DNA of 32,000 nt from positions 2,370,001 to 2,402,000 of the forward strand of contig NC_006138.1 of NCBI RefSeq assembly GCF_000025945.1, read 5' to 3'. Every line of letters begins with the position of its first letter. Position 1 is the first letter of the stretch. The notes under the pieces were generated by a model, which saw nothing but the letters and a program-made list of their open reading frames with translations, was not told the DNA's origin and did no database searches. This document shows positions 6,700 through 30,600 of this stretch, piece by piece. Made by a program: the position numbers and the translations under genes. This DNA is from Desulfotalea psychrophila LSv54 (GTDB lineage Bacteria > Desulfobacterota > Desulfobulbia > Desulfobulbales > Desulfocapsaceae).

Positions 6700-7307
6700 G
6701 CAGAATGTGGCCTTTGTTAGTGTTTGATCTTATTGACGTTATCCCATCGTCAGTCCCATTTTTAGCTGAGTAGTTTCGTATGCCTGCACCTAGATGTCAA
6801 ATTATTACGGTACAGATTATCCTGAGACATAGGGTTTACTTGGGGTAGATAAGAGGCAAGCATTAATTTTATTCAAAGCCTTGATCGCAGCCCTACCTGC
6901 TTGTAGTGACACATCGTCTTTTCAGCAAGAGATATTTGTTGGTACCCTGTGCTTTCCTGCTCCTTTTTCTTTAGTGTTTTTTACTGCATCATATTTTCTA
7001 CGCCTTTGTATAGCCGAGCCTCCTGCTTTCCGTGCTATAATGAGTTAATATGGACTCCATAATGTTGGGTTGGATCATGTGGAAGGAGCTAATAGATAAT
7101 ATCGCAGCTCACCTCAAAGGTTAATACTGCCACGTCAAGCTAGACATCACAGGAACTGTTAGTTCGAATATACCGAAACATCTTAGCGTATTTATCTATT
7201 TGTACTAAGTGAATATTTGCTTTATTATTCGATTCATGACGGATTCAATATCAGAATTGAGGATAGATTTTTCTTATAAATCAATTTAACTAATAAAAGG
7301 TATCATC

Positions 7308-7490
7308 ATGGAAATATTACTGTTTTTTGGTTTAGTAACTTTTTCTGCCCTCTTTTGTTTTACCCTGAAAGTCAACCAGTCGAAACACAGGCCCAACCCA
7401 AATACCCCTGGGGACCTTGTCTTTTTGAAAGTTACGCCAATCCAACAACCAGAGCGTTCCTATAACAATATTCGGCTGAGGCCATTCTAA
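7308..7490 (+). CDS. possible small membrane protein, 60 aa
   Basis: ATG preceded by AAAGG about 9 nt upstream. One hydrophobic helix (ILLFFGLVTFSALFCF). No other support; it may be spurious. Confidence 0.2.
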   Translation: MEILLFFGLVTFSALFCFTLKVNQSKHRPNPNTPGDLVFLKVTPIQQPERSYNNIRLRPF

Positions 7491-7568
7491 CAATATTCTG
7501 TAGGTGGTGGAGCCTCATCCACAGATTCCTCGTAGCAGGTTTATCATTAAATTATCAGGAGTTTCACA

Positions 7569-9006
7569 ATGCGTAGATTTTTAAACTTTTTTTCCTTTAC
7601 TACAGCCCTTGTGGTCTTTTTGGGTTTTGGCGGAGTAGCCTTTGCGACTGGCTCTGGAATGGTTCAGGACACCTTGAATCTGACAAAGCACTGGGGAGGA
7701 TATGTTGCATTGATAGTCTTCGTGGTGGCGTATGTATTTGTCATGCTTGAAGAGATTACGCATATGCGAAAATCCAAACCGGTCCTGTTAGCTGCCGGTA
7801 TTATCTGGGGTGTGATCGGCCTGATATATGCGATGAATGGCATTGATCATGCTGCAGAGGCTGCCCTGCGTCATAATATTCTCGAATATGCAGAGCTGTT
7901 TCTCTTTTTGCTGGTGGCCATGACCTTTATCAATGCCATGGATGAGCGGCAAGTCTTTGAGGTTCTCCGGGTAAAGCTGGTCAATGCCGGTTACTCCTTC
8001 AGAAAACTCTTCTGGATCACCGGTTTGCTGGGCTTTTTCATCTCTTCGGGTGCAGACAATCTTACCACGGACCTGTTGATGTGTGCTGGGGCGATGGTTA
8101 TCGGCAAAGAGGATAAAAAATTTGTAGGCCTGGACTGAATTAATATTGAGTGCTGCCGCCAATGCGGGCGGTGCTTTTAGCCCCTTTGGAGACATTACCA
8201 CCTTGATGGTATGGCAGAAGGGAATTATCCAGTTTCAGGAATTTTTCGTATTATTTATCCCCTCTGTCGTCAATTGGCTTGTGCCGGCAGTTATAATGAG
8301 CTTTGCCGTACCAAATAAGCAGCCTGAATCAGGCATTGATGATATAAAACTGAAGCGTGGGGCCCTTGTGATTATAGGTCTTTTTCTCTGGACCATCGCC
8401 ACTGCTGTAAGCTTTCATAATTTTCTGAAACTGCCACCGGTGGCTGGTATGATGGCCGGTTTGTCGCTCTTGAAAATATTCGGCTACTACCTTAACAAAA
8501 CCCATGTTAAAAACCGTTTAACCTATGATCCAGTAAAAGCGGAACAACGGATCGGCCAGATCGTTCCATTTGATATTTTCGCCAAGGTAGCACGGGCAGA
8601 ATGGGATACACTGCTTTTTTTCTACGGTATCATCCTCTGTGTTGGTGGTCTCGGTTTCATGGGTTACCTCGGCCTTGCCTCAAACATAATGTACCTTGAC
8701 CTGGGGCCGACAACCGCCAATATCATTGTAGGATTTCTCTCAGCAATTGTTGATAACATTCCGGTCATGTTTGCCGTTCTGACCATGATGCCGGAGATGT
8801 CTCAAGGTCAGTGGCTACTTGTCACCCTGACAGCGGGAGTTGGTGGAAGCATGCTGTCCATTGGTTCAGCCGCAGGGGTGGCACTTATGGGGCAGGCCAG
8901 AGGCAAATATACATTTTTCGGACACCTCAAATGGTCTCCGGTGATTGCCCTGGGATACGTAGCAAGTATCTATACCCATTTCCTCATAAACAGTTCATTG
9001 ATGTAG
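7569..9006 (+). pseudogene. nhaD: NhaD-type Na+/H+ antiporter, interrupted by a frameshift (pieces 7569..8138 and 8146..9006)
   Basis: The two adjacent ORFs are 189 aa and 286 aa, both polytopic membrane proteins, and together match the roughly 475 aa of NhaD. The second piece opens with AANAGGAFSPFGDITTLMVWQ, which I recognise as the NhaD signature. AGGAG lies 9 nt upstream of the ATG at 7569. Frame 0 stops at TGA 8136-8138. The downstream frame is closed upstream by TAG 8125-8127. The only stop-free path therefore switches frame within 8128-8135. Confidence 0.65.
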
Positions 9007-9055
9007 CTGAAAAGTGGCTGGTAGTACAGAGCTTATTTTTCAATGATAATAAAAT

Positions 9056-9089
9056 CCCCGTTAGGAGCTTATCAAGTCTCCTGACGGGG
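9056..9089. terminator. strong hairpin between the convergent nhaD and nhaR genes
   Basis: ccccgttaggag (9056-9067) pairs with ctcctgacgggg (9078-9089): a 12-bp stem with one G:U pair and a 10-nt loop. On the minus strand it is followed by GATTTTATTATC, which is T-rich. There is no T tract on the plus strand. Confidence 0.5.
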
Positions 9090-9331
9090 GCAGTAGAGTG
9101 TAGTTATATGCAGGCTTGAAAACATTTAAGAGGCATAATTTTCTAAGAGTAAAAAATCAGTTTTTAACACCAGTTGATTGATCGAGGTACTCTCCACCCT
9201 GTTGCTCTTTGTCGGTAGCATAGGAGGTGCCTAGTGTTTTCAAACAAGGAGTGAAACTATTGTTGAGGTGCTGTTGGATTGTTCACGCAAGCCTTGCAGG
9301 TGCCCTTGTTGTTTTTGGGCTCTCCTGCTTA

Positions 9332-10399: not shown

Positions 10400-10680
10400 T
10401 TAGTGCCTGTTAGACGGCCCATAAATTTTTGGATTTACCTGTTTGAACGTTGTATTCGCGGTTACGGTCATGCTGCCCTGATAATGCTGTGCTGTCCCAA
10501 CTTTCCCTCGTTTTCTTGTCTACCCAAGACGTCAAGGTCATTGCTTCAGCGCCCCACTCTGGCCAAATTTTGGTTTTTCTCCTGCTAGCTACCATGACTC
10601 CTCCAATGCTCTATGTTATAAGAAAACATCATCGAGCAAAGTCAGTAACTTCTATTTATGCAATAAGGCCTCGATTAATC
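10400..10680 (-). mobile_element. heavily decayed Tn3-family tnpA 3-prime remnant (left, inverted copy)
   Basis: 10592-10670 is an inverted copy of 19769-19847, which lies in the right-hand Tn3 tnpA remnant. Continuing on the minus strand, the translation gives ENEGKLGQHSIIRAA, compared with ENQLGALGLVLNA in the right copy. It is broken by several stops, and I could not find a terminal inverted repeat. Confidence 0.35.
10592..10670. repeat. left arm of a 79-bp inverted repeat pair (partner 19769-19847)
   Basis: By-eye alignment to the reverse complement of 19769-19847 gives 11 mismatches in 79 bp. There is a perfect 30-bp core, tctatgttataagaaaacatcatcgagcaa. Confidence 0.85.
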
Positions 10681-11213: not shown

Positions 11214-11323
11214 AAGCGCCCCGATCGACTTTTTATGCATTTTGTTGGCCTTGTTGCATAAATTCTGAAGGAAGAAAATCAGTTTTCCTCTGTTCCACTC
11301 CATCTTAGCAAACAACCTCTTGA

Positions 11324-11551
11324 ACAGGCATTGCTCTTGCTCAAGGTCTTGATTACAGTGGACTTAGGCTTGACCGTTGTATTCGCGAAGGCTTAAATTA
11401 TCGTTCATCAACTGCTTGTAGTGATACATGGCAGAATTTAAATTTTCGAACGATGTTAAAGCGATTCAATTGCAAAACAATCGAGTTTTCCAAAAGTACT
11501 GAGCTGCATGATAAGGTAATTGGTACTTTTTTCGAACGAGAATTTTATTAA
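11324..11551 (+). mobile_element. IS1-family transposase C-terminal remnant
   Basis: Open frame with no start codon. It ends [38 protein letters not shown], compared with the E. coli IS1 InsB tail [27 protein letters not shown]. Only the last 40 or so codons are recognisable. Confidence 0.55.
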
Positions 11552-11751: not shown

Positions 11752-12399
11752 ATGAATATTACCTACAGAGATGCTTCTGTTAATGACTTTAGCACTATTA
11801 TACAAATATTTGTAAAGAATATGTCCCACAGCGTATTTACTAAAGCAACTGATAAAGATGTCCTTAGCTGCATAGCAGCTATTCAGATGGCAGAAGAATT
11901 TCATATTGCAAGTTGTATCAAAATAGCTGAATGGGATGGAGAGATATGTGGTGTTTTGATAGGTGCAACTGATGCTAGTGTGCCACCAGCAGTTTCATTC
12001 GACTATAACGCAATGATAAGAGATGCCAACATAAAGTTAACGACCACGAGTGAAGGACAGATGGTTTTAACAGAAATGCTTTTACATAATAAAAACGTAA
12101 AATTTGAATCGGAATGTGAGGTGATATTAGACTGTGATGGAGAATTGATGTTTTTTGCTGTGAATCAAGAGTACCGGCGCTACAAGATAGGATCTTGCTT
12201 AGTGAAGAACTTTGAAGAGTTTCTTCAGAAATGTGGTAGCAAAAAATATTTCCTTCATACTGATAGTCAATCCACTTTTCAATATTATGAGAACAACGGG
12301 TTTGAATGTGTGTGGAAAAAACAAAGTATATTTAACTCATCCGTTGAGCATTATACATACGTAAAAGAATTAGGAGCATGTTGCGTTTCGAGGTCGTAA
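11752..12399 (+). CDS. GNAT-family N-acetyltransferase, 215 aa
   Basis: Acetyl-CoA binding block FFAVNQEYRRYKIGSCLV (the Q/R-x-x-G-x-G/A type) followed by YENNGFE. AAAGGGA lies 11 nt upstream of the ATG at 11752. The track's TTG at 11743 is too close to this RBS. The last 68 nt overlap the transposase remnant on the opposite strand. Confidence 0.7.
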   Translation: MNITYRDASVNDFSTIIQIFVKNMSHSVFTKATDKDVLSCIAAIQMAEEFHIASCIKIAEWDGEICGVLIGATDASVPPAVSFDYNAMIRDANIKLTTTSEGQMVLTEMLLHNKNVKFESECEVILDCDGELMFFAVNQEYRRYKIGSCLVKNFEEFLQKCGSKKYFLHTDSQSTFQYYENNGFECVWKKQSIFNSSVEHYTYVKELGACCVSRS

Positions 12400-12742
12400 C
12401 TTGGTAAAGGAATGTTTTATTGTTACTTGTTGGGGCCCGACGATTGGTTGGCCGCTTCTTAAATAAATTTGGTTTGAGTTGATGAAACTCTTTCAGCTTA
12501 TCCATGGGCGTTAAATGCTTCAATGCTTTTTGCGGGTGGCTATTATAAACGAGTTCGTATCGGTGCATTGTATCCTCAAGATCTTGTGCTGACTCGAAAG
12601 TAGTTCTTTTCAGAATGGCAGCAATGCGCCCATTGAAACGTTCAACCATTCCGTTTGATTGAGGATGCATTGGCTTTATAAGTCTATGCTCAATATTGTG
12701 GACGGTGCAATTTTGGTCAAAACCATGTTTACCTGTATGTAC
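12332..12742 (-). mobile_element. rve (DDE integrase-core) transposase C-terminal remnant, IS481-like
   Basis: The frame is open from 12742 (closed upstream by TAA). It reads ..FDQNCTVHNIEHRLIKPMHPQSNGMVERFNGRIAAILKRTTFES..LYNSHPQKAL..TP... This is the block that follows the catalytic E in rve transposases. The N-terminal two thirds, carrying the two catalytic D residues, are missing. Confidence 0.7.
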
Positions 12743-12978: not shown

Positions 12979-13995
12979 TCAAGATTCTTCAGGATAACAG
13001 CCACAAAGGCAGTTCGCAAGCTTGTCAGGCGTCAGTTGCCAGAAGTAGCACTGCAGATCGACGCTACATAGCGCCCTTTTGAATTCATCAAGATCATAAC
13101 GTCGACCGGTCAGCACTGCTTCCAATCCTTGCATATCATTTCCACAGGCACTATCACCACAAATCTTGATATTTTTGACAATCCCCCCCTTTACCATTAG
13201 GTCAAGGTCAATCCGGCAGTCATTCAACCGGGCGGTTCTGCGGATACGGCATTCAGGGGATTTGCCATAGTTCCATTCCCAGGCATGGTACTTTTCTTTG
13301 GACAGCAGGTGGATGTCTTTCCAGTCCTTGTCGGTCAGTTTCTTTTCCCGCATGCCGCCGTACGGCGCAAAAATAGAATCCTGTATACTGTTCTTGAAAG
13401 TGTCCATATCCATGTAGCCTACAAGGTGCTCGCAGATGTTTGTCACCCTGCTTCTGACGGATGGTACGCCCCTGGAGTCAGTTTGCTCCACTTTCCCCTT
13501 CAGGGCGCGAGCCAAGTCTTGCATCTCCACATCAAAAAGCAGTGTTCCGTGGCTGACTATGCTCTTTTTCGTTGAATATTGGGCCATTCCAGATATTTTC
13601 ATGCCGAAAGCGAAGATATTGTTTCTCTCGGAAAGTTCTGCCGGAACGCCCAGGCCCTGCAATGCCTTGATAACCGGCGCGGTGATTTTTTTGAAATTAA
13701 GTATGTTCGATTTTTCGTATTTGGTGATGAAACTAAAATTCAGATTCCCGTGGTCATGGTAGACGGCGCCACCTCCCGAAATCCTGCGAACGACATGAAT
13801 CTCCTTCTGTCTGACGAATGCGTGATCGATTTCCTGAAACGCATTCTGGCTTCTTCCTATTATGACAGCAGGCTCATTGATATACAATAGCAGGTAGTCA
13901 TGCTGCGGATCAAGATTCCTCAGGCAATATTCTTCGAAAGCCAGGTTGAGGCGCGGGTCGGTAATGCCGGAATTATCGATAAATAACATGGCCAT
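12979..13995 (-). CDS. lplA: lipoate-protein ligase A, 338 aa
   Basis: The N-terminus DPRLNLAFEEYCL...YINEPAVIIGRSQN...VVRRISGGGAVYHDHGNLNFSFI is the classic LplA pattern. ATG at 13993-13995. GC is 43-53% on three hand-counted lines, intermediate between the flanks and the upstream operon. Confidence 0.9.
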   Translation of the reverse strand: MAMLFIDNSGITDPRLNLAFEEYCLRNLDPQHDYLLLYINEPAVIIGRSQNAFQEIDHAFVRQKEIHVVRRISGGGAVYHDHGNLNFSFITKYEKSNILNFKKITAPVIKALQGLGVPAELSERNNIFAFGMKISGMAQYSTKKSIVSHGTLLFDVEMQDLARALKGKVEQTDSRGVPSVRSRVTNICEHLVGYMDMDTFKNSIQDSIFAPYGGMREKKLTDKDWKDIHLLSKEKYHAWEWNYGKSPECRIRRTARLNDCRIDLDLMVKGGIVKNIKICGDSACGNDMQGLEAVLTGRRYDLDEFKRALCSVDLQCYFWQLTPDKLANCLCGCYPEES

Positions 13996-14078
13996 CCTTG
14001 ACCTCTGCTGTTGAAACCTGAAAACAGGCTATGGATCGGTTACGGGCATTGGCAAGGTGCAGGCCGGCCTGCCAAACC

Positions 14079-14324
14079 TCAGTCGATGCGGGCAGCGAGG
14101 TAGCCGATGAGGTCGTTTAGGGTAATGATCTGTCCATAGTCCTCCTCTGGAATTTCCACCCCGAGTTCTTCATAGAGCTTGACGAAAAAAGTGAGGACAT
14201 CAAAAGAGTCGATGTCGAGGGCATCCTGCATGTTCTCGTCGGCAGCCAACCCATCTAAATCGGCTTCGGGGGTGATTGGTTGCAGGGCCCGGAGGATGGT
14301 CTCTTTGATTTGCTCTTTTCTCAT
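14079..14324 (-). CDS. acyl carrier protein, 81 aa
   Basis: [11 protein letters not shown]...[28 protein letters not shown]...LNDLIGYL has the D-S-F/L-D phosphopantetheine attachment motif and the acidic helix II of an ACP. Its ATG overlaps the E2 stop (ATGA at 14321-14324). The 46 Pro/Arg-rich codons upstream in the track ORF are read-through of the E2 3-prime end in another frame. Confidence 0.85.
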
Positions 14325-15514
14325 AACTCTTCCGGTTTTTGCAGGTGGTGGTTGAGGGCTTCCAGAAACTGGGCCCCGCGATGGCCGTCGGTGGCACGGT
14401 GGTCTGCGGCCAGAGTGGCTGTCAGGATGGGACGAATGCCGAGCATACCGTCCTTGGCCCAAGGCTGCTCCAGGATTTTACCGAACCCGACCAGCGCTAC
14501 TTGGGGGGGATAGATGACGCCATGAACCACCTCAACCCCCAGGTCCCCCAGGTTTGTTATGGTAACGGTAGCATCGGTCAGCTCCGAGCTGCGCAGGTGA
14601 CCGCTGCGGGTGCGGGTAATCAGGTCGGACAAGGTTTCCATCAGCTCGGGCAGGCTCTTGAGGTTGGCATGGTGAATGGCCGGTGCCACCAGGCCGCCCT
14701 GCCGAAGCGAGATAACGAAGCCGATATGCACCGCTTCCTCGGGCTGTTGGCGATTGTCGAGCCAATAACCGTTGAGTTCCGGCACCTTTGCCAGGGCCAG
14801 GGCGGTGGCTTTGATCAGCGGCACCACAGGCAATACCCGCTCCTTGATAGAACGTTTCTTGTTCTCTGCCTCCAGCCAGCGCAGGGTATTGCTCATATCG
14901 ATGCGGCTGGCCAGATAGTAATGAGGAATTTCCCGGTTGGACCGGGCCATTGCGGTTGCAATGGCCTGCCGCATGGCGGCCCCTGGCGTAGATGGCACCG
15001 ATTGGGCTGCGGCCTTTTCCGCCGCTGCGGCACGTTCAATGTCGATGCCGGTGATGGCGCCGCCCTGCCCTGTGCCCTGGACTGTGCTCAGTTCAACGTC
15101 CAGTTCAGCAAGCAGCTTGCGCGCCCGGGGCGAAATCCTCAGCCTTTTGCCCGCTGCAGTGACCACAGCCGGAGGCGGCTCTGCCGCCGGTTCCTCACGG
15201 TGCGCCGCGATCAGGCAGGCCTTGTACTTGAACACCGGTTCCGGCAACGCTTCTTCCCTCAGCTCCCTGCCCTGCTCTCCGTTCCCCTGGATGGTCGCCA
15301 GCACAGTGCCCACGGGAACATTCTCGCCCCGCTGGACCAGGATCTGCTCGATGACGCCGTCGGTAAACACCTCGATCTCGATCACCCCTTTTGCGGTTTC
15401 CACCTCGGCAATGATATCGCCACGTTTGACCTGATCGCCCAGCTTGACCTTCCATTCGACCAGCCGCCCCTCTTTCATGTCGGCACCCAGGCTGGGCATG
15501 CGGAACTCAGTCAT
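14321..15514 (-). CDS. 2-oxoacid dehydrogenase E2 (dihydrolipoamide acyltransferase), 397 aa
   Basis: Lipoyl domain [23 protein letters not shown]...[10 protein letters not shown]3-binding-like segment [34 protein letters not shown], and catalytic domain ending [19 protein letters not shown] (DHRxxDG). The start at 15512-15514 overlaps the E1beta stop by 8 nt (ATGACTGA). The track ORF extends 66 codons further upstream. Confidence 0.9.
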
Positions 15515-16505
15515 TGGAAGCCACCATTCTTTTTGCGGTTGTGACGATGGTCTCAGCCTGCGGCATCGCCGCGTCTTCAAGGTGTTTGGCGTAGGGCATG
15601 GGGACCTCGGCGCCACAGATCCTCTCGACGGGGACATCCAGATCGTAAAAGGCACCTTCCATGATACGTGCACTGATCTCTGCGGAAATTCCCCCGCTAC
15701 GCCAGCCTTCATCGACGATCAGTGCCCGGTGCGTAGTTGCGATGGAGGAGAGGAAAGTCTCCTCATCCAGCGGCCGCAGGGTCCGCAGGTCTATCACTTC
15801 CGCCTCGATGCCTTCGCCGGCGAGTGCTTCGGCCGCCTCCAGAGCCTTGAACAGGCTGGCGCCGTAGGTGATGATCGTCAGGTCACGGCCTCGTCGGCGT
15901 ATCAGGGCCCTGTCAATGTCCACGGCTCCTGCGTCTGCCGCCAGCGGCCCCTCCATGTTCAGCAACCCCTGGTGTTCAAAGATGAGCACCGGATCGGGGT
16001 CTTCCAGGGCGGTCCAGAGCATGCCTCGCGCATCCTCCAGGGTTGCCGGGGTCAACACCTTGATGCCGGGAACATGGGCATACCACCCCTCCAGGCTGTG
16101 AGAGTGCTGGGCCGCCAGCTGCTTGCCGCCGCCGGTGGACATGCGGATAACCAGAGGAACATTGAACAGCCCGCCCGACATATGCAGAAATGTTGCGGCA
16201 TTGTTGATGATCTGATCGGCTGCCAAAAGGCTGAAATTGACCGTCATAATTTCCACGATGGGACGCATGCCGCCAAGGGCAGCCCCAATGCCGGCCCCGG
16301 TGAAGGCCGACTCCGACAGGGGCGTGTCGATGATCCGCTCCGGGCCGAACTCTTCGAGCAGCCCTTTACTGACTGCAAAGCAGCCACCGTACCGGCCGAC
16401 ATCCTCCCCCAAAAGAAACACTCTTTTGTCCCGTTGCATCGCTTCGCGCATCGCTGCCCGCACAGCTTCCCGATACGTGGTCTGAATCATGTTTTTTTCG
16501 CTCAT
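15507..16505 (-). CDS. 2-oxoacid (pyruvate/acetoin-type) dehydrogenase E1 beta subunit, 332 aa
   Basis: [63 protein letters not shown] is the typical transketolase-like pyrimidine-binding domain of E1beta. ATGA overlap with E1alpha at 16502-16505. Confidence 0.92.
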
Positions 16506-17509
16506 GTCGTCCCCCTTTCCGAATAAACAAAGCGCGTTAGATCCTCCACCGGCTCCCAGGTACCGTTTTCGGCAAAAGCCACCGCCTCTTCAATTTCCCT
16601 GGCAACTTGCCGCTCCAGTTTCTCCATGTCGCCATCGCTTAGCAGATCCTGCTTCTTGAGGCGTTTGACGAAGGAATCGATGGGGCAACGTTTCTTCCAC
16701 TTGTCGACCTCGGCCTTGGACCGATAGAGTTCCGGATCAAACATCGAATGGGCCCGGAAACGGTAGGTGCGGCACTCCAGAAAGTACGGTTTTTGTCCCG
16801 AGCGCACAGCGTTCACAGCTTCATTGGCCGCCGCCTCAACGGCAAGTACATCCATGCCATCCACGGCTGAGGCGGCAATGCGGTAGCTGACCGCCTTACG
16901 GGTCAGATCGGTGACCGACTGCGACCGCTCCAAGGCGGTGCCCATGGCATAAAGATTGTTCTCACAGATAAAAAGGACCGGGAGGTTCCAGAGGGCGGCC
17001 AGGTTCATCGATTCGTGAAACTCCCCTTCGGAGACGGCTCCGTCACCGAAGAAACAGCAGGTGACACGCTTTTTGCCCTGCATCTTGTCAGCCAGGGCCA
17101 ATCCCACCGCCAGTGGCAAGCCGCCGCCGACGATGGCGTTACCGCCGTAGAACCGGGTCTTGTCGTCAAATATGTGCATCGACCCGCCTCGCCCCCGGCT
17201 GCAACCCTCCTGTTTGCCGTACATTTCCGCCATGATGGCGCCGGCGGATATGCCACGGGCCAAGGCGTTGCCGTGTTCGCGGTAGGTGCCCACTGAGGCA
17301 TCCTCCGGTTCAAGCGCCGCGCTCACGCCAGCGGCCACCGCCTCTTCACCAATATAGAGATGCAGAAAGCCGCGGATCTTCATCTTGGTGTAGAGTTCAG
17401 CAGCCTTCTCTTCAAAACGCCGTATGCGCACCATCTGATACAGCAGCTGTCGCGCATGCGCAGGATCAACCCCGGCCCCTGCCGAGCCGCTTGTCGCTTT
17501 TACCTTCAT
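16502..17509 (-). CDS. 2-oxoacid (pyruvate/acetoin-type) dehydrogenase E1 alpha subunit, 335 aa
   Basis: [27 protein letters not shown]...YREHG... followed by the TPP motif [35 protein letters not shown] overlap with the upstream synthetase at 17506-17509. Confidence 0.92.
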
Positions 17510-19281
17510 TCGTCTACCTCCAGTGTCGATGTGTCGCCCTCGGCGAGCCCCAGCTCACGCGCCTTGAGTAGCCGCCGCATGATTTTGCCGCTGCGGGTCT
17601 TGGGCAGATTGTCACGAAATTCAATCTCTTTCGGAGCCACCGCCGAGCCAAGCTTCTTGCGTGCGAAGCCGATGAGTTCCAGACGCAACTCTTCGCTGGG
17701 TTCTGTGCCCGGCTTAAGGGTGACGAAGGCCTTGACCAACTCACCGATCAATGCTTCGGGCTTGCCGATGACGCCTGCCTCAGTCACCGCCGGATGCTCC
17801 AGCAGCGCGCTTTCGACTTCGAACGGCCCGACCATATGGCCCGAGGTTTTGATAATGTCATCGGCACGGCCGACAAACCAGAAATAGCCGTCCGCATCGC
17901 GATAAGCCAGATCACCGGTTATGTACCAGTCGCCGACAAAGCATTTGCGGTAGCGCTGCTCCTCATGAAGATAAGCACGGAACATGGAGGGCCAGCCGGG
18001 CCGTAAGGCCAGTTCGCCCTGGGTGCCCGGTTCGGTAACTGCTTCGGCCCTTTCCCCGGTGCCGCGCCGCACGATCGCCGCCTCGATCCCCGGCAGCGGT
18101 AAGCCCATAGAACCAGGGCGGATGTCTACGGCTGGGTAATTGGCGATCATAATGCCGCCTGTTTCGGTCTGCCACCAGTTGTCATGGATTGGTAGGCCCA
18201 GACTTTGCTGTCCCCAGGATACGGCTTCGGGGTTGAGCGGTTCACCAACGCTATGAATGCAGCGCAGGTGGCTCAGATCATACTGTTTGGTGGGATCGAT
18301 GGCCAGGCGCATCAGTCGCCGAATGGCTGTGGGGGCTGTGTACCAGATATTTACCTGCTGCTCCTCCAGCAGCTGGTACCAGCGCTTGGCATCGAACTCT
18401 GCTTCGTCGATGATGTTGGTTACGCCGTGAACGAGAGGGGCGATAATGCCGTAGGAGGTGCCGGTGACCCAGCCGGGGTCGGCGGTGCACCAGAAAACAT
18501 CTCCGGGGTGAAAATCGAGTACGTACTTACCGGTCAGGTAGTGGGTAAGCACCGCATTGTGTACATGAACAGCACCCTTCGGCATCCCCGTGGTACCACT
18601 GGTAAAATGGACAATCGCCATATCCTCCGGGTCAGTCGGTGGAATGATAAACGCGTCCGCAGCCTCTTCCATACGTCTGGGCAGCGACCAGAGGCCTTCA
18701 CCGATATCTTGCGCCGCATCGATGAGCAGGATATGTTTTAGCTGCGGCAGTCGCTCGCGCAGAGCGGCGACTTTCTGTTTATAGAGCCGCTCGGTGGTCA
18801 CCAGGACCTTGGCATCGCCCTTGCTCAGGCGTTGATAGATTGGCTCCGAGCCAAAAGCGGAAAACAGTGGACAGAAGACGCTGCCGTTCTTCCAGGTGCC
18901 AAAGGCAGAGAAATATAGCTCGGGCACCCGCCCTGCCAGGGTGAACACCCGCTCTCCCCTGCCGATATCCAGTTCCCTGAGCACGTTGGCAAAACGGTTG
19001 CTCTGTCTCTTCAGGTCTGAGTAGCTGAAGTCACGAACGCCGCCGTCCTTGCCCAGCCAGCGTATGGCCAGACGGTCACCCCGCGGGCCATTGGCATGAC
19101 GGTCTACAGCCTCATGGGCGATGTTCAAACCCTTGTTTTCCGGTAGTCCGTCCAATTCCCGACGGGCTGTTGCCCATGAAAACTGGTCACAGGTTTTGCC
19201 ATAGTCCAAGAGGTTCGGTTGCACTGCCCAGGAATTGGCAGCCTTTGTGATCGCTTTGCAAGGCCCGGAATCATCTTTCAT
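17506..19281 (-). CDS. AMP-forming acetyl/acyl-CoA synthetase (Bacillus AcsA-like), about 591 aa
   Basis: AMP-binding motif [23 protein letters not shown]-like [12 protein letters not shown]-terminal RSGKIMRR. The N-terminus resembles short AcsA-type enzymes ([11 protein letters not shown]). I prefer the ATG at 19279-19281, preceded by GAGGTG. The track starts at a GTG two codons earlier (19287). Confidence 0.85.
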
Positions 19282-19768
19282 CTTCACCTCTGTCTGCCGG
19301 TATCACTGGAATCAATCAATAGTTGCCAGCTTCTTTTCAGTTCATCTGGGCTTTTAGCATTTTCGACAGCCGCCGAAACAATTGTTGTTCATTTCGGTTA
19401 TGATGCAGATAATCTGGCAAGCCGTTTGGCTCTGGTTCCTCTGTCAATTATACAAACGCAGGTGCTGGCGGTTAGCCTGGCTGCATAATGTCTTAAACGT
19501 GCACCATATCAGAAGCTCAGACCTCTCAAATAAGCCTCTGACTATAGGTCGGAAATTGTGAAAAGGTTGTGTTGAGCCATGAAGTTGTAGCCGGTTTTAT
19601 GATAAATCGGGTCGTGCTTGACACTGCCTTTATATTATATATCTGTATGGCAGAAACATTTGCACTCCATACCAATGTTTAATGTTCGCATTTTCCCTGG
19701 TTCATATCAAGAAAAAGGCGACAAAAAGAATTTCAAGGATTCATTCGTGTCCATTGACAGTTGCTACC

Positions 19769-19847
19769 GGCCTTGTTGCACAAATAGAATTTGCTAGCAT
19801 TGCTCGATGATGTTTTCTTATAACATAGATTATTGGAAGAGTTATGG
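19769..19847. repeat. right arm of the 79-bp inverted repeat pair (partner 10592-10670)
   Basis: See the entry for 10592-10670. About 86% identity by eye, with a perfect 30-bp core. Confidence 0.85.
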
Positions 19848-20245
19848 AAGACAGCAGCAGAAAGATCAAGGCTTTGAACAAGAGAGATGCCTGTTCGAGA
19901 GGTTGTTTGCTAATATGGAATGGAGCAGAGAGAAACTGATTTCCTTCTCTCATGATTTATGCAACAAGGCCCTCGACGCGGTGAAATCCGCAAGAGATAT
20001 AGAGAGGACAGGAGAATCAACTCGGTGCTCTTGGCCTCGTGCTAAATGCTTCAGTGCTTTGGCAAACACTATATATGGATCAAGCGGTGGAAACGTTACG
20101 TAATCAAGGAAGAGTGATTACGTCCGAGGATATATCTCGCCTTTCACCATTGGTGCACTCGAATTTAAACGTGCTTGGCAGCTATTCATTTGATTTATCG
20201 CCAGAGGTGGAGAAAGGCAAACTTCGGGCACTAAGGCCGATTTAG
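19769..20245 (+). mobile_element. tnpA: Tn3-family transposase (tnpA) 3-prime remnant, frameshifted and 5-prime truncated
   Basis: The in-frame tail 20003..20245 reads ENQLGALGLVLNASVLWQTLYMDQAVETLRNQGRVITSEDISRLSPLVHSNLNVLGSYSFDL....LRALRPI*. This matches the conserved C-terminus of Tn3-family TnpA (..LNxxxLWNTxY......L...G.....ED..RLSPL...HIN.LG.Y.F). Weaker similarity continues upstream in another frame (..LCNKALDAVKSARDIERTGE), with a frameshift near 20012. About 900 N-terminal codons are absent. Confidence 0.7.
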
Positions 20246-20271: not shown

Positions 20272-20310
20272 GCTTAACCCGGTTTTGTGTTCCGTTACTG
20301 CCCAAACCCC
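20272..20310. repeat. Tn3-family terminal inverted repeat (right end)
   Basis: gcttaacccggttttgtgttccgttactgcccaaacccc lies 27 nt after the tnpA stop. In reverse complement it reads GGGGTTTGGGCAGTAACGGAACACAAAACCGGGTTAAGC. This shares the GGGG tip, the internal ACGnAAC/AAAAC block and the GTTAAG inner end with the 38-bp Tn3 inverted repeat (GGGGTCTGACGCTCAGTGGAACGAAAACTCACGTTAAG). Confidence 0.6.
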
Positions 20311-20729: not shown

Positions 20730-20876
20730 ATTACCTGTGGTCAACGACTTGAACGACAGAATTTTAATTTGCGAACGAGGCTAAAAAGACTCAAGCGCAA
20801 AATAAGCGGCTTTGCCAAAAGTACTGGGCTGCAGGGGATTGCACATATCGAACGAGAATTTATGGTGCCACCTTGA
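20730..20876 (+). mobile_element. second IS1-family transposase C-terminal remnant
   Basis: The frame reads ..LERQNFNLRTRLKRLKRKISGFAKSTGLQGIAHIEREFMVPP*, compared with the IS1 InsB pattern IERxNLNLRQHLARLxRKxxxFSKS. It abuts the SemiSWEET stop and overlaps the last codons of the minus-strand gene that ends at 20860. Confidence 0.55.
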
Positions 20877-24371: not shown

Positions 24372-25226
24372 TTACTGATATTTAGCAAAGAGGCTTTGCA
24401 TTGTCTCCTCCGATATCCTTCGCTTATAAAGCGGTGTGGTGGCATCATGGTATAAACGATGGGACTTTTCAAAAGGAGTTTTGTTCATGTTTTTATAGAT
24501 AATCCCAAGCGGATACGGATCGGTTTCCAGCGACTTGGCGAACGCCACAGCCTGATTGGACCAGTCATGGTCTTCTGCTAGCTCGGCTGTATTTTCTACA
24601 TACCATTTATAGGTATTTGTCTTGTTAAAGGTTACGCAGGCCTGAAAGATATCTACTATTGCCATGCCATCGTGAGCGATAGCCTCTTTAATGATTTCTT
24701 TACTGAGTTCTGGTTTATGCATTGAAGTGCGAGCAACAAAAGAGGCATCAAGGCTTATTGCCAGGGCGAGTGGATTAAGAGGTGTTGCAGCTACACCTGT
24801 TACCTGAGCAGGAGTCACCATGCCATACAGACTGGTGGGAGAGGCCTGCCCTTTGGTAAGACCATAAACCATATTGTCATGCACCAGAACAGTGATATTA
24901 GGGTTACGCCGGATAGCATGAATAAAATGATTACCACCCTCTCCATACATATCCCCATCGCCACTCTCAACAATCACATGAGTTTCGGGTTGAGCAGCCT
25001 TAATTCCTGTGGCTGCGGGCAGGGACCTACCATGCAATCCATTAAAATAACTTGCATTATAAAACTGAGGTGCCTTGGCCGCCTGACCTATGCCTGAAAC
25101 AAAAATCACCTCTTGGCGTTCCATCTCAATCTCTTTTAAGATCTCTAATATTATTTTTCGGATAGCAAAGTTGCCACAACCTGGGCACCAGGAAATATCA
25201 GGTTGTAGATCAAATAAGTCTTTCAT
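24372..25226 (-). CDS. korB: 2-oxoacid:ferredoxin oxidoreductase beta subunit (TPP-binding), 284 aa
   Basis: WCPGCGNF near the N-terminus and the TPP motif GDGDMYGEGGNHFIHAIRRNPNITVLVHDNMVYGLTKGQASPT. ATGA overlap with korA at 25223-25226. GGAGGAG RBS. Confidence 0.9.
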   Translation of the reverse strand: MKDLFDLQPDISWCPGCGNFAIRKIILEILKEIEMERQEVIFVSGIGQAAKAPQFYNASYFNGLHGRSLPAATGIKAAQPETHVIVESGDGDMYGEGGNHFIHAIRRNPNITVLVHDNMVYGLTKGQASPTSLYGMVTPAQVTGVAATPLNPLALAISLDASFVARTSMHKPELSKEIIKEAIAHDGMAIVDIFQACVTFNKTNTYKWYVENTAELAEDHDWSNQAVAFAKSLETDPYPLGIIYKNMNKTPFEKSHRLYHDATTPLYKRRISEETMQSLFAKYQ

Positions 25227-26923
25227 ATCATCTCCTCCGTAATGCTCTGGACAAGTTCTTCAACTGAGAACGGCATGCCATTATATTTTAGTATGCGATG
25301 AGGAAAGAGCCTGCCCAGTTCTCTTTGCAGAAAATCTGCAAATTGGCCTAGCTGATTATTCTCCACCACCACCACCTTTTGCGCACCATCTATATACTCA
25401 GCAATTTTCTCAGAGAGCGGATAGAGTTGCGGGCAAAACAGAAAAGATACCTTGCCACTACCAATAATCTGAAGAGCCTCACAAATTGCCCCGTAGGTCG
25501 AGCCCCAACCAATGATCAAGGTTGCATAGTCAGGTTCACCCACCAGCTCTGGTAGCATGGCCGCTTTTGTAAGAGTTTCTAGCTTTTTCAGCCGATTATC
25601 TGCCATTGCCAGATGTATCCCATCAAGGTCTTCTGTGATTTTACCATCTTCATCATGCTCGTCTGAGTCTAAACAGACATTGCCAGAACCATATCCGGGT
25701 ATGCCGCGTGGTGAAACACCATCTTCGCTTAGTTGGTATCTCTTATAGCTATCATCGGTTTTAATCACTGCGGATTCAATCTGCACCTGCCCTGCATCCG
25801 GATGAGCAATAGGGTAATAACTATCCACAAAGAATTGATCCGTTAAGACAAAAACTGGTATTTGAAAACGATCTGCAAGGTTGAAGGCAAGTCGCGTATA
25901 CTCAAAGGCCTGTTCAAGGGTGCCGGGTGCGAGAATAAGTCTGGCAAATTCCCCATGTCCTGCATACAAGACCAGATTCAGGTCACCTTGCTCGGTTCTT
26001 GTTGGTAACCCTGTTGCAGGCCCTGGACGTTGCGCCAAATGCACCACAACGGGAGTTTCTGTCATGCCGGCAAGAGAAATTCCCTCGGTCATCAAGGCAA
26101 AACCACCACCTGAAGTAGAGACAATGGCACGACCACCTGCATACCAGGAGCCTATGGCCATATTAATCACCCCGATTTCATCTTCCACCTGTTCCACAAC
26201 AATGTCTGCCTGCTTGGAAAATTCGGCCAGTGTTAAAAAAACTGATGTACCCGGTGTCATTGGATAGGCAAATGCAGCATTACACCCTCCTGCCATAGCA
26301 CCAAGTGCCACTGCATCAGCACCATTGAGGAGTAGGTTCTCTTGCAATGATCTGTTTTTGGCGGGAGTTGGTCGCCCACTAGTCAATAGTCTTGAATGAG
26401 AGGCCATGCCAATCTTATACCCCTCTTCGGCAGCGTCTATATTGCCAGCAATAATCCCTTCTGATTTGAGGGAAAAAGTGTCTCTGATCTCTTTATACAA
26501 ATTAGCAGAATCGAAATCGAGCAGACCACAGAGAAAACCTAAGGCTACAGAATTGGTGTACAGTTGATTACCATGTTTTTTGGCTGTTGCTGCAAAATCG
26601 ATTTCAGTGTCACGACCGCCGATATGCTCACGGCTACCTACTATTGTGGTTGATTTGGTAACCCTGCTACCAAGATGTTCTATAACACCATTTTTCAGTG
26701 GAATGAGAAGATCTATCACATCCACATGGGCACGAACTGGCTCGGAAGAAATTCTTATTTCTGTGGTATTTATTCCTCCCCGTACCCGGGACATATATTC
26801 TTTAGTAGCAAAAACATACAAACCACTTTCTTTGACAATATGTAGCAGGGCCTTTTCTAGGAATTGAATTCCTTGACCCGCTTCGCCGCCCAAAACAAGG
26901 GTAAAACCTTTGACTCCACCCAT
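25223..26923 (-). CDS. korA: 2-oxoacid:ferredoxin oxidoreductase alpha subunit (fused gamma-alpha domains), 566 aa
   Basis: N-terminal gamma-like domain GGEAGQGIQ...EYMSRVRGG, then the alpha domain NGADAVALGAMAGGCNAAFAYPMTPGTSV...GGRAIVSTSGGGFALM. The size is typical of two-subunit KorAB/OFOR enzymes. ATG at 26921-26923. Confidence 0.9.
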   Translation of the reverse strand: MGGVKGFTLVLGGEAGQGIQFLEKALLHIVKESGLYVFATKEYMSRVRGGINTTEIRISSEPVRAHVDVIDLLIPLKNGVIEHLGSRVTKSTTIVGSREHIGGRDTEIDFAATAKKHGNQLYTNSVALGFLCGLLDFDSANLYKEIRDTFSLKSEGIIAGNIDAAEEGYKIGMASHSRLLTSGRPTPAKNRSLQENLLLNGADAVALGAMAGGCNAAFAYPMTPGTSVFLTLAEFSKQADIVVEQVEDEIGVINMAIGSWYAGGRAIVSTSGGGFALMTEGISLAGMTETPVVVHLAQRPGPATGLPTRTEQGDLNLVLYAGHGEFARLILAPGTLEQAFEYTRLAFNLADRFQIPVFVLTDQFFVDSYYPIAHPDAGQVQIESAVIKTDDSYKRYQLSEDGVSPRGIPGYGSGNVCLDSDEHDEDGKITEDLDGIHLAMADNRLKKLETLTKAAMLPELVGEPDYATLIIGWGSTYGAICEALQIIGSGKVSFLFCPQLYPLSEKIAEYIDGAQKVVVVENNQLGQFADFLQRELGRLFPHRILKYNGMPFSVEELVQSITEEMI

Positions 26924-27651: not shown

Positions 27652-30600
27652 ATGAAAAATTTATTATTGATCGAAGTATTGGCTGGCGGAGAAGTTGTTG
27701 AACATCCTCTGACAATATCGGCGTCCTTTGGCGCCCAGGCGGGGGCGATTTACTCTGTCCTCGACCAGGACCATCGCATCCCGGACAATCTCATCATAAA
27801 ACGAAGCGGCGATAATCTTGACATTGAAATCGATGAAGAGCCTGTTGCCCAAATTGAAGATTTCTACGGTCAGGAGCTTGGGGCTAGATACAGTGTCGAT
27901 GGATCCCTGGCCCCCGCTGAGGGGATGGCCATCACTGACACCACAACGGCTGGCCCAACGGATGAAATCGTCTGGCAGGCCTCCGAGGGGGCAGAGTCAA
28001 TCAGCCCGTGGGTTTGGGCCGGTGGCCTGTTGGGTGCCGGCGGTATCGCCGTCGCAGCAGGCGGAGGCAGTTCAGATAGTAGCAGCTCAGTAGATAAGGG
28101 TAGTGATAGCCACGACGTCACCGTCAGGGGTGTTGCCGGTCCATTTCTGGCCACTTCCCATGCGATCGTTGAAGTTTACGATGGCCAGGGCAATCTGCTC
28201 GGCGGTGGTAAATTTGAGACCAGCGGCCAGGTTAAACTCACCATTGGCGACTATAAGGGGGCAATTCTTGTCAAGGTAATCGACAACAATGAGGGTGCAG
28301 GGGATTACCTTGATGAGGCCAGCGGCCTTTCTCTCAGCCTCGGTGCGCCCCTGCGCGCCATGGGCTATTCCGATGGAAACGGTGATGTCTATATCAGCGT
28401 CACCCCTCTGACCGAGCTTGCCGCCCGCCAGGCCGGCATCACCGGCAATGAGGTCAACGAAGCCGATCTTGCCGCCAACGACCAGATCGCAGAACTCTTT
28501 GCCGTTGAAGATATCCTGGCCCCCGTTGTCACCGTTGTCGAAGACGGCTACGACAGCAGCGACGAGATCAATGAGACGGCAGAACACTATGGTGAGATCC
28601 TCGCCCAGCTGTCCGGTGCCGATAGTACCACCACCGGAATGGCCAAGACCCTTGACCAACTGGAAAACGCCATCACCGAGCTGGGGGATGGAAAATTAGC
28701 CTTAAGTCAAGAGGGGGTTGAGCTACTCGCTGACGGTGTTGATGCCTTTACAAACGGAGTTAATGGCAATCGGGCTGACCTCGGGAACAGCCTCATTCAA
28801 CCTCCCCTGATCGAGGCGGCCAATGACGGTATTAATGCTGCCGACAAGGATGCCGGCATCCTTGTAAAAATATCTGGGGTAAAAGCTGATGACGGGGTCA
28901 GCCTCCAATGGGGAGAGCAAACGCAAGACTTTATCATTGCAGGCATAGATATCGATGACGAGGGAATGGCCTCCATCACCCTGCCCGCCAGTATTGTTGA
29001 GGCCGCAGGTGATGGCTCAACTGTCGTTCGCTATCAGATCAACGCCGGTGATATGAGTCCGGCCGTTATAATTGAGGTCGACACCATGGCACCAGATGCA
29101 CCGACCTTAGCCGAACTCATTACAACCGATCTGGACGACACTCTCATGAATGCTGCTGAGTCGCTATCAACAGACTTCCAAGCAACACTACCAACAACAG
29201 GTTCACTTGCAGTGGCAGGTGACAGCATCGAGTTGCTTCTTGATGGCAGCTCATTTGCAACAGCAAAGACGGTGATACTTTCTGCTGATGACATCACTAA
29301 CGGCTCTGTGAATTTCACTGTTACTAACGCTGATCTCGGTAGCGACGGTGCCAAGGCATTGACTACACAGTTAACCGATATGGCTGGCAATGTGGGCATT
29401 ATCAGCAATGCGATGGACTTCACCCTTGATACCACCCTACCAGCTGCACCGACCTTAGCCGAACTCACTAGCACCGATTTGGGCGACACTCTCATGAATG
29501 CTGCTGAGTCTCTATCAACAGACTTCCAAGCAACACTACCAACAACAGGTTCACTTGCAGTGGCAGGTGACAGCATCGAGTTGCTTCTTGATGGCAGCTC
29601 ATTTGCAACAGCAAAGACGGTGATACTTTCTGCAGACGACATCACTAACGGCTCTGTGAATTTCACTGTTACTAACGCTGATCTCGGTAGCGACGGTGCC
29701 AAGGCATTGACTACACAGTTAACCGATATGGCTGGCAATGTGGGCATTATCAGCAATGCGATGGACTTCACCCTTGATACCACCCTACCAGCTGCACCGA
29801 CCTTAGCCGAACTCACTAGCACCGATTTGGGCGACACTCTCATGAATGCTGCTGAGTCTCTATCAACAGACTTCCAAGCAACACTACCAACAACAGGTTC
29901 ACTTGCAGTGGCAGGTGACAGCATCGAGTTGCTTCTTGATGGCAGCTCATTTGCAACAGCAAAGACGGTGATACTTTCTGCAGACGACATCACTAACGGC
30001 TCTGTGAATTTCACTGTTACTAACGCTGATCTCGGTAGCGACGGTGCCAAGGCATTGACTACACAGTTAACCGATATGGCTGGCAATGTGGGCATTATCA
30101 GCAATGCGATGGACTTCACCCTTGATACCACCCTACCAGCTGCACCGACCTTAGCCGAACTCACTAGCACCGATCTGGGCGACACTCTCATGAATGCTGC
30201 TGAGTCGCTATCAACAGACTTCCAAGCAACACTACCAACAACAGGTTCACTTGCAGTGGCAGGTGACAGCATCGAGTTGCTTCTTGATGGCAGCTCATTT
30301 GCAACAGCAAAGACGGTGATACTTTCTGCAGACGACATCACTAACGGCTCTGTGAATTTCACTGTTACTAACGCTGATCTCGGTAGCGACGGTGCCAAGG
30401 CATTGACTACACAGTTAACCGATATGGCTGGCAATGTGGGCATTATCAGCAATGCGATGGACTTCACCCTTGATACCACCCTACCAGCTGCACCGACCTT
30501 AGCCGAACTCACTAGCACCGATCTGGGCGACACTCTCATGAATGCTGCTGAGTCGCTATCAACAGACTTCCAAGCAACACTACCAACAACAGGTTCACTT

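Follow-up and report, generated by a model that had tools for sequence, protein, structure and literature searches.

How did a putative lipoate-dependent, pyruvate-oxidising enzyme system come to lie in the genome of an anaerobic sulfate reducer, and what would it do there? The question is raised by a 32,000-nucleotide stretch of Desulfotalea psychrophila LSv54 (contig NC_006138.1, positions 2,370,001 to 2,402,000), called the window below and numbered from its first nucleotide. On its minus strand, six genes encode an AcsA-type acetate ligase (acs), the E1 alpha and E1 beta subunits and the E2 component of a complex of the pyruvate dehydrogenase (PDH) type, an acyl carrier protein (ACP) and a lipoate--protein ligase (lplA). 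Taken as a whole, the locus is quite likely to be explained as a 6.35-kb operon (about 12,985 to about 19,340) that was acquired by transfer and is a copy of a conserved cassette. The parts of the operon, from its 5' end, are:

19282..19347, minus strand: conserved 5' leader, whose outer end is the right-hand homology limit in alignments to related cassettes
17506..19281, minus strand: gene for the AcsA-type acetate ligase, 591 amino acids (aa), with an ATG at 19281 in an open frame that reaches a GTG at 19287 (family model NF003313)
16502..17509, minus strand: gene for the PDH-type E1 alpha, 335 aa (TIGR03182)
15507..16505, minus strand: gene for E1 beta, 332 aa (NF006667; Transket_pyr and Transketolase_C domains)
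14321..15514, minus strand: gene for the E2 dihydrolipoamide acyltransferase, 397 aa (lipoyl, subunit-binding and catalytic domains)
14079..14324, minus strand: gene for the dedicated ACP, 81 aa (Pfam PP-binding)
13996..14078, minus strand: ACP-lplA spacer, 83 nucleotides (nt), holding the palindrome GCAGGCCGGCCTGC at 14059-14072
12979..13995, minus strand: gene for the LplJ-like lipoate--protein ligase, 338 aa (TIGR00545; C-terminal domain present)

All six genes were found to be intact. Stop/start overlaps of the form ATGA join acs to the E1 alpha gene (17506-17509), the E1 alpha gene to the E1 beta gene (16502-16505) and the E2 gene to the ACP gene (14321-14324); the E1 beta and E2 genes meet at ATGACTGA (15507-15514). 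A purine-rich stretch resembling a Shine-Dalgarno sequence is obvious before five of the six starts and weak before that of E2. The four overlaps and the palindrome lay exactly where a preliminary description of this DNA had placed them; its gene content was read in the same way, and the overlaps together with the ribosome-binding stretches bear out its view of one compact unit.

The composition of the block set it apart from its surroundings. Guanine-plus-cytosine (GC) content, taken in 500-nt windows, was 0.56-0.63 from 14001 to 19000 and mostly 0.33-0.50 in the rest of the window, where a stretch beyond 28 kb is GC-rich as well (0.49-0.58). The five-gene block from acs to the ACP gene (14079-19281) has 59.4% GC, compared with 43.7% for the window outside 12979-19500 and about 42-44% in the local flanks. 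In 1-kb windows the mean of the block was 0.598, against 0.422 +/- 0.029 (maximum 0.474) outside it when the 28-32 kb region is left out, which corresponds to z = 6.0. GC at third codon positions (GC3) was 0.65-0.73 in the five block genes, 0.57 in lplA and 0.36-0.50 in most neighbours, including hrpB, korAB and lysR; the highest exception among the neighbours was one CitMHS fragment, at 0.53. The tetranucleotide signature of the block correlated with those of three native segments of the window at r = 0.56-0.65, while these segments correlated with one another at 0.79-0.84.

The small plasmid of D. psychrophila has 28.6% GC, 18.2 points below the chromosome (PMC4224046), which puts the chromosome at about 46.8%. 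The preliminary description had spoken of a block of about 65% GC in a genome of about 40%. The foreign composition stood, since GC, GC3 and tetranucleotide signature each separate the block from its flanks, and the two figures had to be corrected to about 59-60% and about 47%. The counts on single lines of sequence from which it had started were exact (0.65 at 15001, 0.67 at 18001, 0.30 at 1201, and 0.53 for two sampled lines of lplA, within the 43-53% claimed for that gene).

The closest relatives of the operon were found on metagenome contigs of 56-58% GC. A single unbroken nucleotide alignment of 6.35 kb, with 81.8% identity, joins window positions 19337 to 12985 to positions 1100-7461 of one of them, L002; L001 and L004 align similarly, and the alignment to L005 ends at the end of the ACP gene. 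Compared protein by protein with these relatives, the ligase is 84-89% identical, E1 alpha 82-86%, E1 beta 89-91%, E2 75-80%, the ACP 78-83% and LplA 71-76%. Upstream of acs, collinear nucleotide alignments to L001, L002 and L005 stop at 19306 to 19347, and the last 55-60 nt ahead of the acs start are kept in four sequences. A pattern-based scan of species-representative genomes gave no Desulfotalea or Desulfocapsaceae locus, and the closest named hosts lie elsewhere.

The cassette of L002 adjoins recG and greA. The RecG protein encoded there is 79% identical to Syntrophotaleaceae and 70-72% identical to Desulfuromonas proteins, which identifies the host as a member of the Desulfuromonadales. 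The housekeeping genes of L002 have GC3 values of 0.64-0.72 (0.64-0.68 for recG and greA), compared with 0.71-0.80 for the cassette core on the same contig, and in this metagenome-assembled genome the five-gene core has the composition of its host. In tetranucleotide signature the D. psychrophila block correlated with the modules of L002 and L005 at r = 0.88-0.89 and with the housekeeping flank of L002 at 0.75. L005, which is an isolate genome with the label Deltaproteobacteria bacterium IMCC39146, likewise has the core as a GC island, with 55-61% GC against 38-55% (mostly 41-53%) in the flanks. It stands there in an unrelated neighbourhood, with genes for molybdenum cofactor and transport on one side and for a rubrerythrin on the other. 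On these comparisons there is little doubt that the operon was horizontally acquired by D. psychrophila.

The lipoate--protein ligase gene differs from the other five in composition, having 47.8% GC. Its product scored 375.3 bits against TIGR00545 (cut-off 280), and both LplA-B_cat and Lip_prot_lig_C matched, in keeping with the proposal that the module would bring its own lipoylation enzyme. The nearest relatives of this protein are other cassette-linked proteins, at 66-77% identity, followed at 49-53% by LplJ-type proteins of Bacillaceae and by Desulfoplanes. The low GC content of lplA is also seen in the Desulfuromonadales contigs (46-51%, GC3 0.55), and the ACP-lplA spacer aligns to its relatives with a mean column identity of 72%. 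Because the alignment to the relatives is unbroken through this spacer, lplA arrived with the other five genes. A separate history of lplA, which had been put forward earlier, therefore holds at depth, where the nearest relatives outside the cassette are of the Bacillaceae LplJ type, and fails for this transfer: as judged from protein identities, the gene is of separate, Bacillota-like ancestry and joined the cassette before the transfer to D. psychrophila.

Two other carriers showed different arrangements of the lipoylation genes. On LT984854.1, from an uncultured bacterium (L045), a divergent lipB-like octanoyltransferase gene and lipA lie upstream of the cassette (4192-5749) in place of lplA; with this locus, the bundling of lipoylation with the cassette appears as a recurring solution. 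In L001, lplA is shortened to 249 aa, with loss of the C-terminal domain (6819-7568), and a gene for an IS200-type Y1 transposase lies 0.85 kb past it (8421-9284).

The palindrome in the spacer had been taken as the mark of a step in composition and history. It is not conserved in the relatives, and the spacer is homologous throughout, so that this reading was abandoned. As a recombination seam the palindrome was rejected because it is specific to D. psychrophila and the homology to the relatives passes straight through it. As a terminator it was likewise rejected: it has no T-run, and no terminator-like match falls on it. The only such match in the spacer lies away from it, at the lplA start codon (14003-13990), and the next one (14216-14196) is inside the ACP gene. 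Neither the Rfam nor the tRNA scan gave a match in the window, hence no riboswitch and no tRNA insertion site is found there.

Remnants of mobile elements were identified on both sides of the operon:

19769..19971, no strand assigned: 203-bp element resembling a miniature inverted-repeat transposable element (MITE), with 17-nt terminal inverted repeats GGCCTTGTTGCACAAAT / ATTTATGCAACAAGGCC (pair I12)
20003..20245, plus strand: remnant of a Tn3-family transposase gene, the C-terminal 80 codons and the stop (Pfam DDE_Tnp_Tn3, E = 1.5e-14)
20273..20310, minus strand: lone 38-bp terminal inverted repeat of the Tn3 family, GGGGTTTGGGCAGTAACGGAACACAAAACCGGGTTAAG, occurring once in the window, with its inner side facing the operon
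12332..12740 (approximate end), minus strand: remnant of an insertion sequence (IS) integrase core (Pfam rve_3, E = 7.9e-10, from an extended translation), with stop codons upstream

The cassette itself stands between a GNAT/IS stub and an amidohydrolase gene. The match of the Tn3 stub covers profile positions 330-389 of 389. The 38-bp repeat is presumably of the Tn3 type by its likeness to the pattern GGGG...GTTAAG. The best candidate in the window for a second such repeat agreed at 23 of 38 bases, which is equal to the result for shuffled sequence. These results confirm, through the Tn3 DDE C-terminal fragment and the rve_3 integrase fragment, the transposase debris that had been described around the block, and they show that the Tn3-family element present here is a remnant and not intact. 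Partial inverted copies of the MITE-like element occur at 10570-10670 (83%) and 11247-11353 (85%), and a 77-nt direct repeat at 11432-11508 recurs at 20757-20833 with 81% identity. The island thus has MITE-like and direct repeats to its left and to its right, and the copies on the left are rearranged.

In its general features the locus resembles Tn3 transposons and genomic islands with passenger genes: it has a compositional jump, a Tn3 remnant with one end turned towards the cargo, the remains of an IS at the opposite side and a paralogue on a plasmid. It differs from them in having a single terminal repeat; no resolvase gene, intact transposase, target duplication or tRNA insertion site was found in the window.

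The E2 of the operon is the D. psychrophila protein WP_011189335.1 (100% identity). A second E2 (WP_011190399.1), with 92% protein identity, is encoded on the 121,587-bp plasmid of the same strain; the plasmid copy has been mentioned as the cold-shock-related 'AceEF, DPPB38-40' (PMC4224046). By inference the whole cassette, and not only E2, is present twice in the strain. The high-GC relatives, the flanking remnants and this diverged plasmid copy all agree with the earlier description of the block as an acquired module. The donor would have resembled a marine member of the Desulfuromonadales with about 57-60% GC, and the route would most likely have been a plasmid or a Tn3-family transposon. 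After the transfer the host would have worn down the mobile-element flanks, with the composition of the cargo barely altered.

The import of a lipoate-dependent, presumably pyruvate-oxidising system by an anaerobic sulfate reducer, together with a lipoylating enzyme, can be followed here in a clean and datable case. The strain already has genes of its own for a 2-oxoacid:ferredoxin oxidoreductase in the window, and two diverged imported E2 copies were kept. The host oxidoreductase alpha and beta genes (24372-26923, minus strand) have 44-46% GC and lie 5 kb from the imported system. A horizontal-transfer island is in itself a well-documented but ordinary kind of event.

The gene order acs-E1 alpha-E1 beta-E2-ACP was found in about 40 loci of many phyla, which were collected by an E2 scan of species-representative genomes and by plasmid searches. 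The E2 search returned at least 8000 candidates; 120 proteins among the matches listed were all at least 51% identical where an identity was reported. Hosts of the cassette include Prosthecobacter and other Verrucomicrobia, Acidobacteria, Halomonas, Rhodocyclaceae, Reyranella, Chelativorans, Nitrospirales, Photobacterium and Chitinophagales, the last with acs at the end of the order. The cassette is carried on plasmids in Leisingera, Burkholderia, Cupriavidus, Rhodococcus and Streptomyces, and a nucleotide search of a plasmid collection yielded only distant copies, at about 70-78% identity. No further neighbouring gene was universal among the approximately 40 loci. The catalytic residues that were checked did not vary in 40-45 copies. 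From this distribution it is very likely that the D. psychrophila operon belongs to a conserved cassette. On the Leisingera caerulea plasmid (L048, 4185-6182), E1 alpha and E1 beta are fused in a 665-aa gene annotated as pdhA.

The proteins were compared with curated family models and with solved structures. The ligase scored 945.6 bits against NF003313, the model for acetate--CoA ligase (cut-off 729). Its best solved match was the 572-aa acetyl-CoA synthetase chain 9g79, with 569 bits and about 53% identity by a hand count of the alignment; we take this chain to be Bacillus subtilis AcsA, the organism not being named in the search output. The tryptophans of the WWQTETGG motif, Lys566 and Arg541 are kept in this ligase and in 39-40 of the 40 cassette copies. 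In the Acs of Salmonella enterica the corresponding residues are a tryptophan of the acetate pocket, the catalytic lysine and an arginine that contacts the 3'-phosphate of CoA. Arg541, the equivalent of S. enterica R584, was found in all 40 cassette ligases. The R191/R194 loop was considered as a means of telling CoA-using from ACP-using ligases and proved uninformative, because 9g79 also lacks it.

Both E1 subunits passed PDH-type cut-offs. E1 alpha scored 469.4 bits against TIGR03182 (cut-off 393.85), and its best solved relative is human PDH E1 alpha (254 bits, as compared with only 131 bits for branched-chain E1 alpha); E1 beta scored 409.3 bits against NF006667 (cut-off 321). E2 matched all three Pfam domains expected of it (Biotin_lipoyl, E3_binding and 2-oxoacid_dh), and its best solved relative is the human mitochondrial PDH E2. 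It fell below every curated NCBIfam cut-off, the best being TIGR01349 with 234.9 bits against 445. The lipoyl lysine Lys42 and the DHRATDG residues His372 and Asp376 were found in 44 of 45 copies, the remaining copy being not resolved. No E3 (lpd) gene was seen among the larger open reading frames (ORFs) of the window or adjoining the cassette in annotated or inspected loci. The ratio dN/dS, computed against L002, was 0.07-0.22 for all six genes, which indicates that all of them are under purifying selection.

Family assignment therefore modifies the earlier reading of an acetoin/pyruvate-type system: the PDH type held, with the E1 cut-offs passed and three E2 domains present, and acetoin was disfavoured, as the curated models favour pyruvate. 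Pyruvate is reasonably likely to be the substrate. In the E1 cut-offs passed, the E2 domain set and the DHRxxDG motif the cassette resembles PDH complexes of the E1 alpha/beta type, such as those of mitochondria, alphaproteobacteria and Geobacillus. It differs from them in lacking an adjoining E3 gene, in an E2 below the curated cut-offs, in the ACP gene behind E2 and the AcsA-type ligase gene in first place, and in being accessory and mobile, on plasmids and in GC islands.

The ACP matched Pfam PP-binding with 29.6 bits (cut-off 20.8) and stayed below every curated AcpP cut-off (best 39.5 bits against 70); its profile is nearest to ACPs of the fatty-acid-synthase type. D39 and S40 were invariant in an alignment of 20 sequences. 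Across 45 cassette copies the DS phosphopantetheine site is invariant, and conservation extends to the motifs IAPE and IPExDY. Wherever an ACP was found (45 copies), its gene lies directly 3' of that for E2, often with a start/stop overlap; in one rearranged locus (L006) it lies between E2 and acs. No fusion of E2 or of Acs to an ACP was seen. The dedicated ACP is an unusual and conserved feature of the cassette, which the preliminary description had overlooked. This protein may be a true acyl acceptor, although on balance that is somewhat less likely than not.

Public annotation of these proteins is generic: acsA, pdhA, "dihydrolipoamide acetyltransferase family protein" and "acyl carrier protein". 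Full-text literature searches on PDH-like or acetoin systems with an ACP, on low-oxygen loci, on quinocarcin and on the PDH of Desulfotalea found no description of the cassette. It is apparently an uncharacterised, conserved and mobile variant of the PDH system, marked by its own ACP and AcsA-type ligase.

A sequence of reactions can be proposed from the genes alone, that is, from intact and packed genes, invariant residues and purifying selection. LplA would attach scavenged lipoate or octanoate to Lys42 of E2. E1 would decarboxylate pyruvate on thiamine diphosphate and reductively acetylate the lipoyl arm, and E2 would then hand on the acetyl group; the thiol that receives it would be that of CoA or of the phosphopantetheine arm of the cassette's ACP. 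The AcsA-type ligase would interconvert acetate and the acetyl thioester, with ATP one way and AMP plus pyrophosphate the other way. Since no E3 is encoded, the dihydrolipoyl arm would have to be re-oxidised by an enzyme from elsewhere, an E3 encoded at another locus, or by another oxidant.

Several points weigh against this account of the locus as a transferred PDH-type cassette with an ACP of its own. No flanking target duplications were found, and a second Tn3-type end is lacking. Between the two copies in the strain there is an 8% difference in protein sequence, which rules out a very recent copying from plasmid to chromosome. No promoter of the sigma-70 type was found upstream of acs. The range of host composition was taken from a single published GC value and from this window, and the assignment of the substrate was made from family models only. 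Finally, the conserved R584-equivalent arginine of the ligase fits an ordinary use of CoA and weakens the view of the ACP as acceptor.

The genes around the cassette in other hosts bear on its possible role. From 34 loci, the 288 ORFs at a distance of up to 6 kb from the cassette were compared with Pfam. The commonest families were Usp (13), PPDK_N/PpsA (7), Hsp20 (4, with 3 more matches to the related ArsA_HSP20 model), and ribosome hibernation factor, cold-shock domain and CBS (5 each). A Usp profile built for the purpose detected one or more Usp genes in 12 of the 34 loci with the cassette, counting flanks of up to 10 kb on each side. The same profile gave no match in 143 kb of control loci, which comprised seven loci from the E2 search that lack the cassette (five of them with E1 and E2 genes) and the present window.

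On plasmid p1 of Streptomyces fungicidicus (L050) the cassette stands among five Usp genes and genes for Hsp20, nicotinate phosphoribosyltransferase, alcohol dehydrogenase and flavodoxin. On pDK1 of Rhodococcus sp. DK17 (L052) it lies beside ppsA and genes for a PfkB-type kinase, a Usp, and a GAF sensor kinase with its response regulator. The neighbourhoods in L047, L048, L049, L050 and L052 are all of a stress or dormancy type, with several Usp genes and with genes for Hsp20, PpsA, a PfkB-type kinase, CBS proteins, nitroreductase and a GAF kinase/regulator pair.

In 7 of 36 copies, against 0.75 expected by chance, an FNR/FixK box (TTGAT-N4-ATCAA, at most one mismatch) lies 53-102 nt ahead of the acs start. 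The seven loci (L022, L029, L031, L032, L033, L035 and L053) are alpha- or betaproteobacterial; three of the boxes are perfect, and four of the loci are from related Reyranella. A search for DosR-like boxes upstream of acs yielded two single-mismatch matches only, which were unconvincing. By correlation, these contexts point to use of the cassette under oxygen limitation in aerobic hosts. The D. psychrophila window showed no stress-gene context around the cassette.

The neighbourhoods in aerobes resemble known low-oxygen or dormancy islands, namely the lxa locus of Burkholderia cenocepacia (PMC3721108) and the actinobacterial DosR/DevR and OsdR regulons (PMC5069765), in their Usp, Hsp20, nitroreductase, CBS, phosphoribosyltransferase, alcohol dehydrogenase, PpsA and PfkB-type kinase genes and in the GAF kinase/regulator pair of Rhodococcus. 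They differ in that searches of the lxa and OsdR papers, in their main text, turned up none of the cassette proteins, and the D. psychrophila copy differs in being without such neighbours.

One alternative gives the ACP a larger part. E2 would acetylate holo-ACP and not CoA, and the AcsA-type enzyme would act on acetyl-ACP, possibly in reverse; this is a tentative proposal, and we regard it as improbable. Its outcome, for which the chances are equally low, would be acetate plus ATP from AMP and pyrophosphate, that is, a self-contained energy shunt from pyruvate to acetate that serves maintenance under anoxia or hypoxia and spares the CoA pool.

The constant position of the ACP gene right after E2 (45 of 45), or between E2 and acs in L006, speaks for such a shuttle, as do the invariant phosphopantetheine serine, the purifying selection on the ACP gene and the lack, in the loci compared, of a conserved downstream gene able to use acetyl-ACP. 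The low-oxygen context in aerobes also fits it (Usp in 12 of 34 loci, PpsA/PPDK, Hsp20, hibernation factor, CBS, and FNR/FixK boxes in 7 of 36 copies). A precedent for transfer from an E2 to an ACP exists in the naphthyridinomycin and quinocarcin systems, where an E1-like enzyme and a lipoyl carrier pass a two-carbon acyl unit to an ACP.

The ligase, however, argues against it: the conserved R584-equivalent arginine (40 of 40) mildly favours CoA over ACP, and the identity of about 53% to the acetyl-CoA synthetase chain 9g79 points the same way. Neither an E2-ACP nor an Acs-ACP fusion was seen to support the shuttle, an Acs running in reverse requires a source of pyrophosphate, and the D. psychrophila window is without stress-gene context. 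The evidence from neighbourhoods is, moreover, correlative and partly non-independent, owing to the four Reyranella loci. That the cassette would be an undescribed type of 2-oxoacid dehydrogenase with a private ACP as acetyl acceptor, a mobile pyruvate-acetate unit for oxygen limitation or anoxia, is accordingly a speculative and rather doubtful extension of the reading as an acquired PDH-type cassette.

A second alternative, which we consider unlikely, is a dehydrogenase for acetoin or for another acyloin or 2-oxoacid, in which acs would recycle the acetate derived from released acetaldehyde. Acetoin dehydrogenase systems have the same layout of E1 alpha/beta and E2; the acetyl-CoA synthetase genes to which they are linked are acoE in Cupriavidus and acsA/acu in Bacillus, and the acetoin cluster of the anaerobe Pelobacter carbinolicus (Desulfuromonadales) carries a lipoate gene of its own (acoS). 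This likeness of the cassette to AcoABCL systems, extending to lipoate-supply genes in anaerobe clusters, and the failure of E2 to reach any curated PDH cut-off are in favour of acetoin. The family models stand against it: E1 alpha and E1 beta pass PDH-type cut-offs, the best solved relatives of E1 alpha and E2 are mitochondrial PDH proteins, and the match to the acetoin E2 model NF011457 is confined to the lipoyl domain (79.6 bits, cut-off 307). In addition, no acoR-type regulator, E3 (acoL) or acoX gene adjoins the operon among the larger ORFs of the window, and Aco clusters are not known to include an ACP.

It is still less probable, to a degree that makes it a poor candidate, that the cassette would supply acetyl-ACP from pyruvate or acetate as a starter for the synthesis of lipids, storage polymers or secondary metabolites. 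Biosynthetic pathways are typically loaded by such a pair of AMP-forming ligase and dedicated ACP, and the fatty-acid-synthase-type profile of the ACP agrees with this role; yet no ketosynthase, acyltransferase, polyketide synthase (PKS) or nonribosomal peptide synthetase (NRPS) gene is conserved beside the cassette in about 40 loci.

The naphthyridinomycin, quinocarcin and dnacin systems (NapB/NapD/NapC) share with the cassette a thiamine-dependent E1-like enzyme with a lipoyl carrier and a small stand-alone ACP. Their E1 is transketolase-like and takes a ketose-phosphate donor, and they lie in NRPS clusters and have no AcsA-type ligase, whereas the cassette has a PDH-type E1 and no NRPS or PKS gene nearby. 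A gene table with two-component transketolase/PDH-like systems and an ACP, of the NapB/NapD/NapC type, is given in PMC7570522, which has Peng et al. 2012 among its references.

That the GC-rich block is native, shaped by selection on the codons of highly expressed genes, or an assembly artefact is hardly credible: central-metabolism genes can show atypical codon usage and the window has a second patch of 50-58% GC at 28-32 kb, but GC3 is shifted by 20-35 points and the tetranucleotide signature with it, the boundaries match exactly the limits of homology with foreign contigs, mobile-element stubs flank the block, and E2 is on record in D. psychrophila on one contig of 3,523,383 bp, with the 92%-identical copy on the contig of 121,587 bp.

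The acquired cassette, with its invariant PDH core, ACP and AcsA-type ligase and its links to stress, dormancy and FNR, is a testable lead on the handling of pyruvate and acetate when respiration is limited. It is abundant, spread across phyla and plasmid-borne, yet annotated only as separate generic proteins, and the cargo deserves follow-up more than the transfer event.

Some features elsewhere in the window were also recorded. The gene for a CitMHS-family transporter (7569-9006, plus strand) is split into two frames near 8138-8146, either as a frameshifted pseudogene or through a sequencing error. In the second GC-rich patch a 190-aa ORF (28087-28659, minus strand), without a Pfam match, has 57% GC and a GC3 of 0.665, and may also be foreign. 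A 348-nt tandem repeat extends from 29091 to 31994 (8.3 copies, 97% matches) within the ORF 29034-31931 (minus strand); the encoded protein, for which no solid Pfam match was found, has about 50% GC in its gene, exceeds 965 aa and continues past the end of the window.

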